From: Escherichia coli
Lineage (GTDB): Bacteria; Pseudomonadota; Gammaproteobacteria; Enterobacterales; Enterobacteriaceae
Reading direction: 5' to 3' (one strand)
NCBI RefSeq assembly: GCF_003991155.1
Contig: NZ_CP031293.1
DNA: 64,000 bases
Every line of letters begins with the position of its first letter. The stretch's first letter is position 1. The position numbers and the translations under genes were made by a program. The notes beneath the pieces were generated by a model, which worked only from the letters and a program-made list of their open reading frames with translations, ran no database searches and was not told the DNA's origin. Of the stretch, positions 7,084-15,149 are shown piece after piece.

Positions 7084-7386
7084 TTATTTTTTGTTCTGAT
7101 CGCGCAGCATCGCTTCACGTAAAATTGCGTTCAGGCGAGTTTGATAGCCTTTACCTGGTCGCTTCAACCATTCCATCACATCAGAATCAATACGCACCGA
7201 GGCCTGAGTTTTCAATGGCCGATAAAACTTACCGCGTTCTGCGTTAGACCATTGCTCATCGCTGGAAGGTGGGATATCACTGTAATCAATATCTTCGTCG
7301 GATTTATTCGCCAGCGCCTTCAGTTCGGCCTCATGCTGCACATCGAGTGTAGAGGAGGTCCCTCGTTTATGTTTAACCATGCTCAT
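7084..7386 (-). CDS. BrnA-like antitoxin (ribbon-helix-helix type)
   Basis: ATG at 7386 (MSMVKHKRGTSSTLD...); downstream of and overlapping the BrnT-like gene by 14 bp in the toxin-first order typical of brnTA. Confidence 0.6.
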   Translation of the reverse strand: MSMVKHKRGTSSTLDVQHEAELKALANKSDEDIDYSDIPPSSDEQWSNAERGKFYRPLKTQASVRIDSDVMEWLKRPGKGYQTRLNAILREAMLRDQNKK

Positions 7387-7654
7387 AGCGATTCCTCTCT
7401 TTACGATCTGCTTTTCGTGCACTGATGATTCGAATAATTTCATTTCCGCTTTCGAAACGGATGGTATGCGCAACCAGAATAACCACGATGCCGTAAACCA
7501 GGCCGATTGTCTGCCAGCGATACTCACCGTTTTCTATGCGTTCTTGCTGTGACAAATGTTGTGGATCATCAAACACTAACACCGCATCTTCAAAGCGGAT
7601 GCCATGTTTCACCCGATTACTTTTGGCCTTGTTTGCATCCCATTCAAACTCCAT
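7373..7654 (-). CDS. BrnT-like toxin (DUF497 ribonuclease toxin family)
   Basis: Translation MEFEWDANKAKSNRVKHGIRFEDA... matches the conserved N-terminal signature of BrnT/DUF497 toxins; start taken at ATG 7654 (in-frame alternatives at 7660 and 7669). Confidence 0.65.
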   Translation of the reverse strand: MEFEWDANKAKSNRVKHGIRFEDAVLVFDDPQHLSQQERIENGEYRWQTIGLVYGIVVILVAHTIRFESGNEIIRIISARKADRKERNRYEHG

Positions 7655-7856
7655 TGGCATAGTTGCCATCCCTAATTGTATATACAAAAATGTATCTACA
7701 ATTATTCTGCAATTATAGCGTTGATGTTGGAAATAGCATCACGTTTTGGATAATCAACCATGAAATTGACAATGAGTGAGTTGGACTTGATTCATCCAAT
7801 AGAATTTCTCGCCTGACATGGCACACTAAACACCTCGCTGTCGTTAAGGGATTACC

Positions 7857-9023
7857 GTGAAAAACTACAAAGTCATTACCCCGCTTTTTCCTACCTATGC
7901 GCAAGTTAAGGCTATGATGAAAGCCGTCTCAGGCTATTCCCTGAAAGCGGTGCGCAATATGATTACTGCCATTCACGAGCAAACCGGTACGCCGCAAAAA
8001 CCCGTTGACTGGTCAGAACCCGACCTGTGGATCAGCGAGCGCTTAACGGGTGAAGATGCCGACATCGCCCGTCGTATTTGGGATACCGATAATCACATCT
8101 TGAACCCGCGCCACAGCTACGGCTGCTACTTATTCCTCAACTATCCCCAGTTTGAGCTGATGGAAAGCACACCAGATGATATCTGGCAGCCCACCTCGCG
8201 CGGGCAAAAATTCCTGCAAGATGACGAAAAAACGCTGCGTTCACTGGACGACCAGGAAGGCATTCTGCAACTGCTTGAGCTGCTGGCTGGCCGGGAAATG
8301 TCGCGCCGCGCCGATTTATTGCCGGAATGGCAGGCCTTTTTGCATCAGCATTCGAAATTCGCGTCAGCAAGTTCAGTGAAAAGCACGCTCTACTCCCGTC
8401 TCTATAACCTTATCGACCGTGACATGGTTAACCGTGAAGGCATGAGCTATCGCATCACCGATACCGGGCGCGCCTGGCTTGGAAAAGCGTTGCCAGCACG
8501 AAAAAGCGATCCGCGTAAAGAGCTGTTGGAAGCGGTAAAACGCTATAACGAACAGCAAAAAGAGCTGCTGCGCGAACAAATCAGCACGATGAACCCGTAC
8601 AAATTTGAGCAACTGGTTGGTCAATTACTGGAAGCAATGGGCTACGAGCAGGTCGAAGTGACCAAAGCCTCAGGCGACAAAGGTGTGGACGTGATTGGTC
8701 AGGTGCAGGTCGGCATCACCACTATTACCGAAGTGGTGCAGGTCAAAAGAATGCAGAACACTATCACTCGCCCGTATATCGACCAGTTGCGCGGGGCGTT
8801 GCCTTACCACAAAGCCATTCGCGGTACGCTCATCACCACCGGGAAATTTGCGGCGAAATGTGCAGAAGCGGCGCTCTTTCCGGGTGCCGCGCCCATTACG
8901 CTTATCGACGGCGATCGTTTACTGGAACTGTTAATCGAAAATAACGTCGGCATTCGCCGCAGCAATGCAGTGGAATTGCTGGATGTGGATTTGCAGTTGT
9001 TTGATGAGCTGGAGATGGATTAA
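7857..9023 (+). CDS. Mrr-family (type IV-like) restriction endonuclease with extended N-terminal region
   Basis: C-terminal ~130 aa carry the Mrr catalytic core (GDKGVDVIG ... EVVQVKR ... LITTGKF ... LIDGDRL); winged-helix-like segment (SYRITDTGRAWL) upstream; start codon uncertain (GTG 7857 or internal ATG). Confidence 0.65.
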   Translation: MKNYKVITPLFPTYAQVKAMMKAVSGYSLKAVRNMITAIHEQTGTPQKPVDWSEPDLWISERLTGEDADIARRIWDTDNHILNPRHSYGCYLFLNYPQFELMESTPDDIWQPTSRGQKFLQDDEKTLRSLDDQEGILQLLELLAGREMSRRADLLPEWQAFLHQHSKFASASSVKSTLYSRLYNLIDRDMVNREGMSYRITDTGRAWLGKALPARKSDPRKELLEAVKRYNEQQKELLREQISTMNPYKFEQLVGQLLEAMGYEQVEVTKASGDKGVDVIGQVQVGITTITEVVQVKRMQNTITRPYIDQLRGALPYHKAIRGTLITTGKFAAKCAEAALFPGAAPITLIDGDRLLELLIENNVGIRRSNAVELLDVDLQLFDELEMD

Positions 9024-9067
9024 AGGGCGAAATCTGCCGCCTCTACCATTACAATACGGAGTTCATC

Positions 9068-9244
9068 GTGGTCAAAGCACCAACTAAAAAAGCCAAAGCA
9101 AAGAAAAGCTCTGAAGAAACATTATGTGATACCACAAACCAATTTCGTGGTAGCGTTGAGTCCTCCGAATACAAGCACGTGGTGTTAAGCCTCGTGCTCC
9201 AGAAACTCATCAGCGATAAGTTTGAAGCACGCCGCAAAAAATGA
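9068..9244 (+). pseudogene. Truncated 5' fragment of a type I R-M methyltransferase gene (hsdM N-terminal domain only)
   Basis: Reading frame VVKAPTKKAKAKKSSEETLCDTTNQFRGSVESSEYKHVVLSLVLQKLISDKFEARRKK-stop; the SEYKHVV...ISD motif is the hallmark of HsdM N-terminal domains; frame ends after 58 codons. Confidence 0.55.
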
Positions 9245-9903
9245 TTGCCGAAGCGTTAAAAGCTGATGGGATGGAAGAAATTTATTTTTCTGGCGACAAA
9301 AAAGCGGAATCTATCGATATTTTTGACGAAGATTATCTGGCGCGAATTAACAAGATCAAACTTCCAGCAACGAAGATCCTGTTATTACAAAAATTACTGG
9401 AAAAAGCGATCAGCGAGTTCAGGAAAGTGAACCAGTTGCAAGGGATTAACTTCACCCGCCGCTTCCAGGCGATTATAGATCGTTATAATGAGCGGCGAGA
9501 AGATGATGTACTCAACGGTGAAGAATTCGATACATTCAGTCAGGAAATGATTGATATTATCTATGATATTAAAACCGAAATGGGCACCTGGGCCGATTTA
9601 GGCATTGATATTGAAGAAAAAGCCTTTTTCGACATTCTTGCTCATATGCGCGATAAATATCAGTTCACCTATGACGATGAAAAAATGCTGTCACTGGCAA
9701 AAGAGATGAAAAGCGTTGTTGACAACACATCGAAATATCCTGACTGGAGTAAACGCGATGATATTAAAGCGAAACTGAAAGTTGAACTTATTCTGCTTCT
9801 ACACAAGCATAAGTTCCCGCCAGTAGCGAATGATGATGTTTATATGGGTGTGCTGGCACAGGCAGAGAATTTTAAAGAACATCATATGAGTGCTTTAAAT
9901 TAA
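9241..9903 (+). pseudogene. 3' fragment of a type I R-M restriction subunit gene (hsdR C-terminal DUF3387-like domain)
   Basis: 220-aa ORF with EEKAFFDIL ... DWSKRDDIKAKLKVELILLLHKHKFPP, the conserved C-terminal domain pattern of HsdR; no helicase or nuclease domains upstream; begins in a different frame immediately at the stop of the hsdM fragment. Confidence 0.6.
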
Positions 9904-9910
9904 TTATGAA

Positions 9911-9936
9911 GGCCGGATACACTTTGTTATCCGGCC
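9911..9936 (+). terminator. Stem-loop (REP-like palindrome) after the hsdR remnant
   Basis: GGCCGGATA ... TATCCGGCC 9-bp inverted repeat; weak T-tract, so terminator function uncertain. Confidence 0.35.
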
Positions 9937-10024
9937 ATTCTGAATTAACGTTAATTTCTCTTCCAGATCTTTCCAGTAACGCTTTTATTATTTTCTATTT
10001 TTAGCTGGACTTTCCCTGTATTTA

Positions 10025-10040
10025 CTGATGATATATCCAG
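10025..10040 (+). promoter_or_regulatory. Putative LexA box (CTG-N10-CAG) in the symE promoter
   Basis: CTGATGATATATCCAG about 80 bp upstream of the symE ATG; symE is a known SOS-regulated gene. Confidence 0.55.
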
Positions 10041-10047
10041 GTATTTA

Positions 10048-10124
10048 GCGCGGTGCGAATGTGCGCCAACACACCCGCACCGCTCATCACAATCCCTATT
10101 TCACGAGAATAGTAATCATGACTG
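10048..10124 (-). ncRNA. symR: SymR-like cis-antisense sRNA overlapping the symE 5' end (position inferred)
   Basis: By analogy with K-12 symE/symR; a TAGAAT -10-like hexamer lies on the minus strand just inside the symE coding start. Exact ends not determinable from sequence alone. Confidence 0.35.
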
Positions 10125-10456
10125 ACACGCATTCTATTGCACAACCGTTCGAAGCAGAAGTCTCCCCGGCAAATAACCGTCAATTAACCGTGAGTTATGC
10201 GAGCCGCTACCCGGATTACAGCCGTATTCCCGCCATCACCCTGAAAGGTCAGTGGCTGGAAACCGCCGGTTTTGCTACCGGCACGGCGGTAGATGTCAAA
10301 GTGATGGAAGGCTGTATTGTCCTCACCGCCCAACCACCCGCCGCCGAAGAGAGCGAACTGATGCAGTCACTGCGCCAGGTGTGCAAGCTGTCGGCGCGTA
10401 AACAAAGGCAGGTGCAGGATTTTATTGGGGTGATTAGTAGCAAAACGCCACGCTAA
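10118..10456 (+). CDS. symE: SOS-induced toxin-like protein SymE
   Basis: ATG at 10118: [48 protein letters not shown]... recognised as SymE (YjiW). Confidence 0.85.
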
Positions 10457-10497
10457 GTTTCTCTCCCCTTCCCCATACGGAAAGGGGAATTGCCCCC

Positions 10498-10662
10498 TCA
10501 CTCCACATCTTCCCTGCGTAACCCAATATCCCTCAACCGCTCATCACTCATCTGCTGTAACACCCGCCGGGCCTGCATTTGCCGCCGCCAACGCCTCACT
10601 GCCTGCCAGAGTTGCACAAGTCCAATAAACGGTGCTTTAGCTTTGTTTTCGTGAAATTCCAT
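10498..10662 (-). CDS. yjiS: DUF1127 small protein YjiS
   Basis: Not in the ORF track (54 aa); minus-strand translation MEFHENKAKAPFIGLVQLWQAVRRWRRQMQARRVLQQMSDERLRDIGLRREDVE with the DUF1127 signature. Confidence 0.8.
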   Translation of the reverse strand: MEFHENKAKAPFIGLVQLWQAVRRWRRQMQARRVLQQMSDERLRDIGLRREDVE

Positions 10663-10838: not shown

Positions 10839-12251
10839 ATGACGCGTTATCAACATCTGGCGACTCTGCTTGCCGAGCGGATTGAGCAAGGGCTGTATCG
10901 TCACGGGGAGAAATTGCCGTCGGTGCGCAGCTTGAGTCAGGAGCACGGCGTCAGTATCAGCACCGTGCAGCAGGCGTACCAGACGCTGGAGACGATGAAG
11001 CTCATCACTCCGCAGCCGCGTTCGGGTTATTTTGTCGCACAACGGAAAGCCCAGCCGCCAGTACCGCCGATGACGCGTCCGGTGCAGCGCCCGGTGGAAA
11101 TTACCCAGTGGGATCAGGTGCTGGATATGCTGGAGGCGCATAGCGACAGTTCCATTGTTCCGTTAAGTAAAAGCACGCCGGATGTCGAAACGCCCAGCCT
11201 GAAACCGCTGTGGCGGGAGCTAAGCCGGGTGGTGCAGCATAATCTGCAAACCGTTCTCGGTTATGACTTGTTAGCCGGTCAGCGAGTGTTGCGAGAGCAG
11301 ATTGCCCGCCTGATGCTCGACAGCGGCTCGGTGGTCACCGCCGATGACATCATCATTACTAGCGGCTGCCATAACTCGATGTCGCTAGCGTTAATGGCGG
11401 TGTGTAAACCGGGCGATATTGTCGCGGTCGAATCCCCCTGTTATTACGGTTCGATGCAGATGCTGCGCGGCATGGGCGTGAAAGTGATTGAAATCCCCAC
11501 CGATCCAGAAACAGGCATCAGCGTTGAAGCGCTGGAACTGGCGCTGGAGCAGTGGCCGATTAAAGGCATCATTCTGGTGCCAAACTGTAATAATCCGCTG
11601 GGATTTATTATGCCGGACGCGCGCAAACGGGCCGTTCTCTCTCTCGCTCAGCGTCATGATATTGTGATTTTTGAAGATGATGTCTACGGCGAACTGGCAA
11701 CGGAGTATCCGCGCCCGCGGACCATTCATTCCTGGGATATCGACGGGCGAGTGCTGTTGTGCAGCTCGTTCAGTAAAAGTATTGCTCCAGGCCTGCGCGT
11801 GGGTTGGGTCGCACCGGGGCGTTATCACGATAAACTGATGCATATGAAATACGCCATCAGCAGCTTTAATGTGCCGTCCACGCAAATGGCGGCGGCAACG
11901 TTTGTGCTGGAAGGTCACTATCATCGCCATATCCGGCGGATGCGGCAGATCTATCAGCGCAATTTGGCGCTTTATACCTGCTGGATACGGGAATATTTTC
12001 CCTGCGAAATCTGTATTACGCGCCCGAAAGGCGGATTTTTACTGTGGATAGAATTGCCTGAACAGGTCGATATGGTTTGCGTTGCGCGGCAGCTATACCG
12101 CATAAAAATCCAGGTGGCGGCAGGCTCGATTTTCTCAGCTTCCGGCAAATACCGTAATTGTCTGCGCATCAACTGCGCTTTGCCGCTCAGCGAAACCTAT
12201 CGCGAAGCACTGAAGCAAATTGGCGAAGCCGTGTATCGGGCAATGGAATGA
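10839..12251 (+). CDS. yjiR: MocR/GntR-family PLP-dependent transcriptional regulator
   Basis: 470 aa; N-terminal GntR-type HTH (LPSVRSLSQEHGVSISTVQQAY) plus aminotransferase-like domain. Confidence 0.85.
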   Translation: MTRYQHLATLLAERIEQGLYRHGEKLPSVRSLSQEHGVSISTVQQAYQTLETMKLITPQPRSGYFVAQRKAQPPVPPMTRPVQRPVEITQWDQVLDMLEAHSDSSIVPLSKSTPDVETPSLKPLWRELSRVVQHNLQTVLGYDLLAGQRVLREQIARLMLDSGSVVTADDIIITSGCHNSMSLALMAVCKPGDIVAVESPCYYGSMQMLRGMGVKVIEIPTDPETGISVEALELALEQWPIKGIILVPNCNNPLGFIMPDARKRAVLSLAQRHDIVIFEDDVYGELATEYPRPRTIHSWDIDGRVLLCSSFSKSIAPGLRVGWVAPGRYHDKLMHMKYAISSFNVPSTQMAAATFVLEGHYHRHIRRMRQIYQRNLALYTCWIREYFPCEICITRPKGGFLLWIELPEQVDMVCVARQLYRIKIQVAAGSIFSASGKYRNCLRINCALPLSETYREALKQIGEAVYRAME

Positions 12252-12368: not shown

Positions 12369-12467
12369 GCCGGATGCCATGTGAACGCCTTACCAGGTCT
12401 ACAAAATTTTTAAAGTTCAATATATTGAATGGGTTATGTAGACCTGATAAGCGTAGCACATCAGGCA
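12369..12467. repeat. REP/BIME-like pair of inverted palindromic units
   Basis: GCCGGATGCCATGTGAACGCCTTACCAGGTCTAC and an inverted partner GTAGACCTGATAAGCGTAGCACATCAGGCA in the yjiR-rpnD intergenic region. Confidence 0.55.
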
Positions 12468-12493: not shown

Positions 12494-13450
12494 TTAGTAC
12501 TCGATCCATGGATCGCGCTTGCTTTCAGGCAAGGGCTGATCTAATGCCTGCATTTGCTCTGCCGAAAGTCCGGTATATCGTTGTATCCATTCAGGATCCG
12601 CCCCATTCTGCAACAACAATCGGAGGAGGCTCTTTTCCCCTTCTTCTTTCCCTTCTTTCCTCCCCCTCTCCCTTCCCAACAGCCATCCATCATTATGAAT
12701 TCGCTCTGCAATCGTCATTATTCGCTCCCTGTGTTGTGGCATTCGACGGATAAGTTCGCTGATAAACTCATTAAAACGCGCTTCATCGCCAGTCAGTAAA
12801 ATGTAATTTAACAGCGCGGTTATCTGGCTGTCATTAGCGCACCCTGTAACCAGTAATACTGCCAGTTGATCAATAAGCCCCATTAGATCGCGCTGGCGAA
12901 TATGCTTTTGGATCAACTCCAGCAGGGCGACTCTGCGATGCTGCACAATCTCGTCGTCTGGCACGACAGTGACATCCACCAGCGGGAACGCTGCGGTATA
13001 AAGCTTCCGTGCGGTAGCCGGGTCGGCAAATTCATCCAGCCAGCACAAAGACCAGGGGTAAGGACTACGGCTACCGTGATAAAACAGCATCGGGATGACC
13101 AGCGGTAGCGGCCGGCGTTTATCATGCTCGATATGGCGCTGCATCACCGCCATGGAATATCGCATCAGGCGAAAGGCCATATGGATATCCTCGCGGCTCT
13201 GATGTTCAATCACCACATAAATATAGCCATCTCCTTCGCGGGTCTTTACCGACCACAGAATATCGGAATGTAGCGCCCGCAATTTTTCATCGACAAAGCT
13301 GGCGTATTCCAGTTTTAAGCTGTCGAGATCGCACAGTTCACGTAAATCTTTGGGTAAGTGGATCTCCATAAAATCCCGCGCGGTGTCAGGGTGGGTGAGA
13401 AAAGATTTAAATAATGCGTCATGCGGCGTGCTGGTCGTGAAGTTTGTCAT
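12494..13450 (-). CDS. rpnD: Rpn-family recombination-promoting nuclease (PD-(D/E)xK, transposase_31-like)
   Basis: 318-aa intact ORF with Rpn/YhgA-like N-terminus ([26 protein letters not shown]). Confidence 0.75.
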
Positions 13451-13916
13451 GGCGATCCGTCACCTGTAGATAAGATGGCCCGACTGTAGCGACTAACAAA
13501 ACCATTCTCACCCGGCAATTTCTCGTTCCCCGAGGTGCTTTCCAGGCTATTTTTGTTCCTCTGCAAACGATACATTTTTCCGGAAACAGGCTCGCATTTT
13601 ACATTTCCTGTACCCGGCAGATATTCCCCTTTCCACCGCACTCTTTTGATTAACCGCAAATTTTAATTACACTTAAGGTGTATATTTTCTATGCAACCCA
13701 TCAATTCAAGAGGTGTAATGTGCTGATGACTATTTGTAATCGTTATACATTCTGACCTGGAGTCAGAAGGTATTTCTCTGTCTGTATGTTCACAGGCAGT
13801 GTGGTTGATTACATGAAATTCAGTACATTTGCCCGTCTCGCCTGCCTTTCGTCATTACCGACGGTATTGAATTTCGTTTTCCCCATTGGGATTCTCCGGA
13901 CAAGGAGTTGTTTGTT

Positions 13917-15149
13917 ATGCCACGTTTTTTTGCCCGCCATGCCGCCACGCTGTTTTTCCCGATGGCGTTGATTTTGTATGACTTTGCTGCGTATCTGTCG
14001 ACGGACCTGATCCAGCCAGGGATCATTAATGTGGTCCGTGATTTTAATGCCGATGTCAGTCTGGCCCCTGCTGCCGTCAGTCTCTATCTCGCTGGAGGCA
14101 TGGCATTGCAGTGGCTGCTGGGGCCGCTTTCCGACAGGATTGGCCGCAGGCCGGTGCTGATTACCGGGGCGTTAATTTTTACCCTTGCCTGCGCCGCGAC
14201 AATGTTCACCACGTCAATGACACAATTTCTTATCGCGCGTGCAATTCAGGGCACCAGTATCTGTTTTATTGCCACCGTTGGTTATGTCACGGTGCAGGAG
14301 GCGTTCGGACAGACAAAAGGGATCAAGTTGATGGCGATTATCACCTCCATCGTACTGATTGCGCCGATTATTGGCCCGCTTTCCGGCGCAGCTCTGATGC
14401 ACTTTGTGCACTGGAAAGTCCTTTTTGCCATCATTGCGGTTATGGGTTTTATCTCATTTGTCGGCTTGCTGCTGGCGATGCCAGAGACGGTGAAGCGCGG
14501 CGCGGTTCCGTTTAGCGCCAAAAGCGTCTTACGCGATTTTCGCAATGTCTTTTGCAACCGGCTGTTCCTCTTTGGCGCGGCAACCATCGCCCTCAGCTAT
14601 ATCCCAATGATGAGCTGGGTGGCTGTCTCGCCGGTGATCCTGATCGATGCGGGCGGCTTAACAACTTCGCAGTTCGCCTGGACGCAGGTTCCGGTATTCG
14701 GCGCGGTGATTGTCGCGAATGCCATCGTGGCGCGTTTCGTTAAAGATCCGACCGAACCGCGGTTTATCTGGCGTGCCGTACCCCTTCAACTGGTCGGCCT
14801 CGCGCTGTTGATTATCGGCAATCTGCTGTCGCCACACGTCTGGCTGTGGTCGGTGCTCGGCACCAGTCTGTATGCTTTCGGGATTGGTTTGATCTTCCCG
14901 ACCTTATTCCGCTTTACGCTGTTTTCCAATAACTTACCGAAAGGGACCGTCTCCGCATCGCTGAATATGGTGATCCTGATGGTGATGTCTGTCTCGGTCG
15001 AAATCGGCCGCTGGCTGTGGTTTAACGGCGGTCGCTTGCCGTTTCATCTGTTAGCCGTTGTGGCAGGCGTTATCGTCGTTTTCACCCTGGCCGGATTGCT
15101 TAATCGCGTGCGCCAACATCAGGCTGCCGAGCTGGCGGAGGAGCGGTGA
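13917..15149 (+). CDS. mdtM: MFS multidrug efflux transporter MdtM
   Basis: ATG at 13917 with AAGGAG SD; 410 aa [27 protein letters not shown]... recognised as MdtM (YjiO). Confidence 0.9.

Follow-up and report, generated by a model that had tools for sequence, protein, structure and literature searches.

An intact rpnD orthologue in Escherichia coli with a predicted nested antitoxin frame, compared with the interrupted gene of K-12

The Rpn proteins of Escherichia coli, RpnA to RpnE, were defined as recombination-promoting nucleases (Kingston et al. 2017, PMC5350276). Purified RpnA is a Mg2+-dependent, Ca2+-stimulated DNA endonuclease for which sequence specificity was not evident; substitutions of D11, D63, E82, Q84, and R94 abolished or altered its activities in vivo, and the D165A substitution in the PDDEI motif made the protein hyperactive (Kingston et al. 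2017, PMC5350276). The rpn genes were later described as gene-within-gene toxin-antitoxin systems in which a short product, RpnS, blocks the full-length RpnL (Zhong et al. 2023, PMC10400941). RpnA_S starts in frame at the internal M244, the upstream K240-E241 codons serve as its ribosome-binding site, and mutating these codons abolishes the short protein (Zhong et al. 2023, PMC10400941). The C-terminal domain that the two products share differs among strains by whole 4-residue repeats, which start 8 to 20 residues past the internal Met, and RpnC_L is neutralized only by RpnC_S of equal repeat number (Zhong et al. 2023, PMC10400941). Neutralization of the cognate RpnL by RpnS has been demonstrated for RpnA, RpnB, and RpnC, internal transcription start sites are present in rpn genes, and tagging revealed a small protein for each of the five rpn genes of K-12 (Zhong et al. 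2023, PMC10400941); ribosome profiling gives internal start signals in all five, rpnD included. Antiphage activity has been demonstrated in the Rpn family only for the plasmid paralogue RpnP2, whose plasmid-encoded gene (RpnP2_LS) belongs to the same family and has the same gene-within-gene layout as rpnD according to that paper (Zhong et al. 2023, PMC10400941).

For rpnD itself, a premature stop in the K-12 gene was already stated by Kingston et al. 2017 (PMC5350276), and a footnote to Table S1 in the supplement of that study specifies that all overexpression of rpnD used a repaired gene, rpnDc. The repaired gene increased RecA-independent recombination 4.7-fold, left 94% fewer viable recipients, and belonged to the quickest inducers of the SOS response (Kingston et al. 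2017, PMC5350276). Because of these activities of rpnDc, an uninterrupted RpnD frame is known to yield an active, toxic protein.

Here, we describe rpnD in a stretch of 64,000 nucleotides of E. coli DNA (NCBI RefSeq assembly GCF_003991155.1, contig NZ_CP031293.1), called the window below. Both the ORF listing and the raw sequence contain, on the minus strand at 12494..13450, one ORF with an ATG start, 318 codons plus a stop, and zero internal stops. The parts of the gene on which the following comparisons turn are these:

12494..13450, minus strand: full-length rpnD coding sequence (RpnD_L, 318 aa plus stop), identified from the ORF, the identical coding sequence WP_000181180.1 in NZ_CP029747.1, and the neighbors mdtM and yjiR
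12821..13429, minus strand: Transposase_31/YhgA-like domain, residues 8-210, with a PD-(D/E)XK core, identified from PF04754 (E 4.6e-86) and the alignment to K-12 RpnA
13139..13141, minus strand: codon 104, CAG (Gln), which is TAG in K-12, identified from the alignment, the ORFs, and the allele counts

The gene is flanked by yjiR (10839..12251, plus strand) and mdtM (13908..15149, plus strand), and rpnD holds this position between the two genes in the window, in E. coli 2016C-3878, in a K-12 derivative, and in MG1655. Synteny together with about 93 to 94% nucleotide identity to K-12 rpnD establishes orthology. A segment of 1401 bases around rpnD has 100% identity to strain 2016C-3878 (NZ_CP029747.1), in which the 957-nt coding sequence is annotated as intact (WP_000181180.1). 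The translated product matches the Pfam family PF04754 (Transposase_31, YhgA-like) with 288 bits (cut-off, 21) over positions 1-202 of the 203-position profile, and TIGR01784 (Rpn family recombination-promoting nuclease/putative transposase) with 168.9 bits against a cut-off of 52.1, so the ORF is not open by chance. What the window carries is the E. coli rpnD orthologue in intact form, a gene of the Rpn family (YhgA-like, PF04754).

The K-12 gene is closely similar apart from a single lesion. The annotation of MG1655 treats rpnD (b4584, 4568998..4569918), located between mdtM and yjiR, as a pseudogene, and that of rpnD in a K-12 derivative carries the remark "internal stop." Pairwise alignment of the window with K-12 rpnD gave a mean column identity of about 94%, and the only disabling change was CAG to TAG at codon 104, which divides the K-12 frame into ORFs of 103 and 190 aa that correspond to the old yjiP and yjiQ. 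The first-pass annotation, which had called rpnD intact at 318 aa without giving its strand and had taken K-12 to carry a split yjiP/yjiQ pseudogene, is thus borne out on both points, and the alignment shows that K-12 rpnD is not likewise a single intact ORF. The idea that the K-12 gene is in fact uninterrupted, or that an amber suppressor allows its readthrough, was rejected since the footnote of Kingston et al. says that a repaired gene was used. Of the first 244 residues, 236 are identical between the two alleles, and K-12 shares the internal start and the Shine-Dalgarno sequence described below. Besides codon 104, the K-12 allele differs in having two instead of five 4-residue units, which accounts for a 36-bp difference, and in its last 50 or so residues, which have diverged from those of the window with a dN/dS of about 0.7.

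Which of the two states is the original one was addressed by allele counts among 5426 complete E. coli genomes, using 30-mers whose seeding of a match requires the diagnostic base. Of the 5426 genomes, 339 had the TAG allele of codon 104, and the named strains among the matches listed were all K-12 laboratory derivatives (MG1655, C600, MC1061, MC4100, ER strains, and transconjugants), the remainder being a few strains with genomes of a size similar to that of K-12. The CAG allele was present in at least 3445 of them, and the loci sampled cover several distinct allele types. Gln is also found at position 104 in the RpnD of Escherichia albertii (P0025, 310 aa) and in the paralogue RpnA, and it is conserved at 90% or more in a family alignment of 29 sequences. 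Because of these counts and the Gln in E. albertii, in RpnA, and in the family alignment, the amber codon is a derived lesion of the K-12 lineage. Judged by allele frequencies and homologues, intact rpnD is the ancestral and prevalent state in E. coli, as the first-pass annotation had suggested it might be.

An rpnD match was found in 4699 genomes, with a median of one place per genome and at one chromosomal site. ORF integrity was judged in 12 annotated loci, while the genome-wide figures are allele-specific k-mer counts. Nine of the 12 loci carry an intact gene (window/2016C-3878, FDAARGOS_1285, UTME-14, 2014C-3061, HS, N96, MEI3A, SK1144, and O18), and three are disrupted, by the K-12 stop codon, by a frameshift in O157:H7, and by the loss of the region beside IS1 in O55:H7 DEC5E. 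The 318-aa type is common: the window segment is matched at 99% identity or more in 483 genomes, and the nearest protein cluster at 90% identity (P0001) has 3918 member sequences.

The catalytic part of the protein is well conserved. In the alignment of window RpnD with K-12 RpnA, D11, D63, E82, Q84, and R94 and the PDDEI motif (residues 164-168) are identical, and among 29 homologues, D11, D63, E82, R94, and D165 are invariant and Q84 is conserved at 90% or more. For codons 1-244, which encode the nuclease part, the sampled alleles give a median dN/dS of 0.11 (range, 0.055 to 0.20) at a dS of 0.08 to 0.20, and the window nuclease domain compared with nine other alleles gives values of 0.07 to 0.17. 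These ratios indicate purifying selection acting on the nuclease domain of a rather diverged gene. From the conserved catalytic residues, a dN/dS of about 0.1, and the activity of repaired K-12 rpnD, we infer that rpnD of the window is functional.

RpnA (YhgA; RpnA_L nuclease and RpnA_S antitoxin; PDB 7TH0) shares 58% identity with window RpnD, all of the tested catalytic residues, and an alignable C-terminal helical domain in which its internal M244 aligns with M245 of RpnD. The two are nevertheless paralogues and not orthologues: window RpnD scores 386.9 bits with the RpnA equivalog NF007361, below the cut-off of 583, and rpnA sits elsewhere, in the order feoC-rpnA-bioH. At the position of the RpnD repeats, K-12 RpnA lacks inserted units, and the tail of RpnD is longer.

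The C-terminal part of the gene contains the elements expected of a nested antitoxin frame:

12494..12718, minus strand: predicted RpnD_S, a nested in-frame ORF (Met245 to the end, 74 aa plus stop), candidate antitoxin, identified from the alignment of Met245 with RpnA M244
12725..12730, minus strand: Shine-Dalgarno-like AGGGAG, 6 nt upstream of the internal ATG, identified from the sequence and corresponding to the RpnA K240-E241 codons
12626..12685, minus strand: hypervariable block of five 4-residue units, residues 256-275, identified by comparison between alleles
12805..12834, minus strand: candidate internal sigma-70 promoter (ATGACA-18-TG-TAAATT), about 87 nt upstream of the internal ATG, identified by a consensus scan and a lead only

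Met245 is encoded by the ATG at 12718..12716 and is invariant among the 29 homologues. In the scan for internal promoters, the number of sites in the region equaled the expectation from shuffled sequence. The repeats start 11 residues after Met245, which is inside the range of 8 to 20 residues given by Zhong et al. 2023. Tandem Repeats Finder detected only a weak 12-bp periodicity (score, 33); the units are too diverged in the DNA of one sequence, so a comparison between alleles was needed to call them. The K-12 units are YIKG and EQRI. The alleles compared have the following numbers of units:

2 units, 306 aa: K-12, O18, SK1144, and MEI3A
3 units, 310 aa: E. albertii
4 units, 314 aa: HS, N96, and FDAARGOS_1285
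5 units, 318 aa: window, UTME-14, and 2014C-3061
6 units, 321 aa: P0026

In these sequences, repeat number varies among rpnD alleles in the manner of the hypervariability that Zhong et al. 2023 described. Past the repeats, the tail changes at a far higher rate than the nuclease domain, with dN/dS values of up to 0.7 to 0.8 against two-unit alleles.

Searches with the short product and with structure added less. A Pfam search with the 74-aa RpnS part alone gave no significant match; PF27070 is listed for homologues in precomputed annotations and was absent from the Pfam search result here. The family profile matches 7TH0 in the C-terminal domain (profile positions 261-303, E 1e-5), a match that is partly circular since RpnA itself is in the profile. 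The PDB match obtained with the single sequence, a designed ankyrin-repeat protein, was rejected because it arises through the chance motif LLLQNGADP and not through homology; the PDB search with the single sequence returned no true relative. AlphaFold2 with the 29-sequence alignment predicted helices at residues 247-261, 267-281, 286-293, and 297-304, at low confidence (mean pLDDT, 55; pTM, 0.38).

Taken together, it is highly probable that rpnD of the window is an intact gene for a nuclease toxin with a nested RpnD_S antitoxin and a likely role in defense, the activities being carried over from the paralogues and from repaired K-12 rpnD. By analogy with these, RpnD_L would be a Mg2+-dependent PD-(D/E)XK DNA endonuclease of low sequence specificity that is toxic if unchecked. 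RpnD_S, of 74 aa, would be translated in the same frame from Met245 and would be expected to bind RpnD_L via the shared C-terminal helical domain and thereby block the nuclease, so that RpnD_L and RpnD_S would form a gene-within-gene toxin-antitoxin pair. Which RpnL a given RpnS neutralizes may depend on how many 4-residue units the first helix of the C-terminal domain contains, five in this allele. The most likely physiological role would be to defend against phage or foreign DNA, and RecA-independent recombination would arise as a by-product of DNA breaks. PADLOC 2023 has no model that matches rpnD of the window.

The surroundings of the gene fit such a role. On the yjiR side, at 7084-10662, the window holds a compact version of the "immigration control region" of K-12, with the following content:

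7084-7386, minus strand: BrnA
7373-7660, minus strand: BrnT
7857-9023, plus strand: restriction endonuclease
9068-9903, plus strand: hsdM and hsdR fragments, annotated as pseudogenes
10047-10123, minus strand: SymR antisense RNA (Rfam, 88.9 bits)
10118-10456, plus strand: symE
10498-10662, minus strand: yjiS

The yjiT, yjiV, and mcrBC genes and the intact hsd genes of K-12 are absent from this region of the window. The presence of a defense and toxin cluster beside rpnD fits the published enrichment of rpn genes near defense genes (Zhong et al. 2023, PMC10400941).

Two further elements lie close to rpnD. Just downstream of the rpnD stop, between the convergent ends of rpnD and yjiR, the repeat search found the following:

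12389..12451, no strand assigned: inverted repeat with 18-nt arms, 89% complementary, and a 27-nt loop, kept in K-12

This repeat is either REP-like or like a bidirectional terminator. Upstream of mdtM, at 13720-13768, lies ytiE, an 11-codon ORF with a GTG start (MLMTICNRYTF) that is identical base for base in MG1655 and is overlapped by a hairpin with a 7-bp stem (13750-13768), the loop of which is unlike that of K-12. The ORF and the hairpin look like a leader peptide combined with an attenuator for mdtM.

The same neighborhood bears on a different view of what RpnD is for, namely, that it serves mainly in RecA-independent recombination and gene acquisition, as the name recombination-promoting nuclease implies, and not in phage defense. 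The 4.7-fold effect of the overexpressed repaired gene speaks for this view, and rpnD adjoins the hypervariable immigration control region, the exchange of which RpnD promoted (Kingston et al. 2017, PMC5350276). However, deletion of rpnA through rpnD left basal recombination unchanged (Kingston et al. 2017, PMC5350276), and the toxin-antitoxin behavior, the hypervariability of the repeats, and the phage protection given by a paralogue favor defense (Zhong et al. 2023, PMC10400941). We therefore regard recombination as an unlikely main role, and the two roles are not mutually exclusive.

An intact frame could also belong to a gene that is impaired or silent in this lineage, for example, because a substitution cripples the nuclease or because the gene is not expressed. 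The residue that raises this question is S49Y (TCC to TAC; window 13304-13306, minus strand): position 49 is Ser in 27 of 28 homologues, and at all other columns conserved at 90% or more among the 28, window RpnD has the conserved residue. Full-length Rpn proteins can also be scarce, as full-length RpnA_L and RpnD_L were undetected in MG1655 under the conditions tested (Zhong et al. 2023, PMC10400941). Yet the S49Y allele is kept with an open frame in 527 complete genomes, including ATCC 25922 and JJ2434, and since it is common to so many genomes, it is a lineage allele and not a private lesion. The purifying selection on the nuclease domain argues against impairment as well, and every residue tested in RpnA is conserved in window RpnD. 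Impairment or silence is accordingly improbable in our judgment, more so than the recombination role.

Older annotations ("putative transposase," "ISNCY family transposase") and the Pfam name Transposase_31 would instead make rpnD a transposase gene within a mobile element resembling an insertion sequence, a reading that is hardly credible. The best NCBIfam match of window RpnD, which bears the ISNCY name (NF007418), reaches 396.5 bits against a cut-off of 583, and Zhong et al. 2023 (PMC10400941) argue that there is no autonomous transposase with this fold and that the ends of rpn genes are undefined. The repeat search found no terminal inverted or direct repeats bracketing rpnD (the sole long-range pair, 78% complementary, lies inside the yjiR and mdtM coding sequences), and about 4700 genomes carry the gene as a single copy at one and the same chromosomal site, so the old label is unsupported.

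The disrupted loci indicate how RpnD_L is lost. In O157:H7 (NE1127, L009:1285-1334), rpnD lies at the same locus as in the window, and the nuclease domain is the same up to residue 254. There, 25 bp (GACGATTGCAGAGCGAATTCATAAT) that take in the internal start codon have been duplicated in tandem; the resulting frameshift truncates RpnD_L at 260 aa, and the duplicated ATG opens a separate, intact RpnS frame of 66 codons with three units. The duplication junction is present in 279 of the 5426 genomes, essentially the O157:H7 lineage. On sequence comparison, the lesions of K-12 and O157:H7 are both derived, and these unrelated lineages lost RpnD_L independently, by the amber codon 104 and by the 25-bp duplication, with the RpnS frame left open in both.

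Other loci have been rearranged around or through the gene. In O55:H7 DEC5E (L014 3001-4000), IS1 directly follows mdtM, and rpnD, yjiR, yjiS, and the restriction region are gone, with BrnT/BrnA coming next; this is a third, independent route of rpnD loss. In SK1144 and O18 (L012 and L013), mdtM is missing and rpnD directly follows yjiN, with rpnD intact at 306 aa; O18 has DUF262 and GmrSD genes in place of yjiR, of which SK1144 has only a fragment. Both flanks of rpnD are recombination prone in these two strains, while rpnD itself stays intact.

The open RpnS frames invite speculation, which we consider doubtful, that an orphan RpnS is kept for a function of its own, such as anti-addiction against an incoming rpnD or the neutralization of related toxins, or that the five-unit S49Y allele of ATCC 25922-like strains is an active defense specificity type that a two-unit RpnS would be unable to neutralize. 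The window allele is in any case a possible natural test case for whether repeat number sets toxin-antitoxin specificity.

In conclusion, the uninterrupted rpnD of the window is correctly read but ordinary: it is the species norm and already in the literature, and K-12 is the exception. K-12 is atypical for rpnD in that the RpnD toxin-antitoxin gene, beside a restriction and defense island, is potentially active in most E. coli. Rpn biology inferred from K-12 therefore omits the RpnD nuclease, and the significance of the finding otherwise lies mainly in the correct annotation of the gene.
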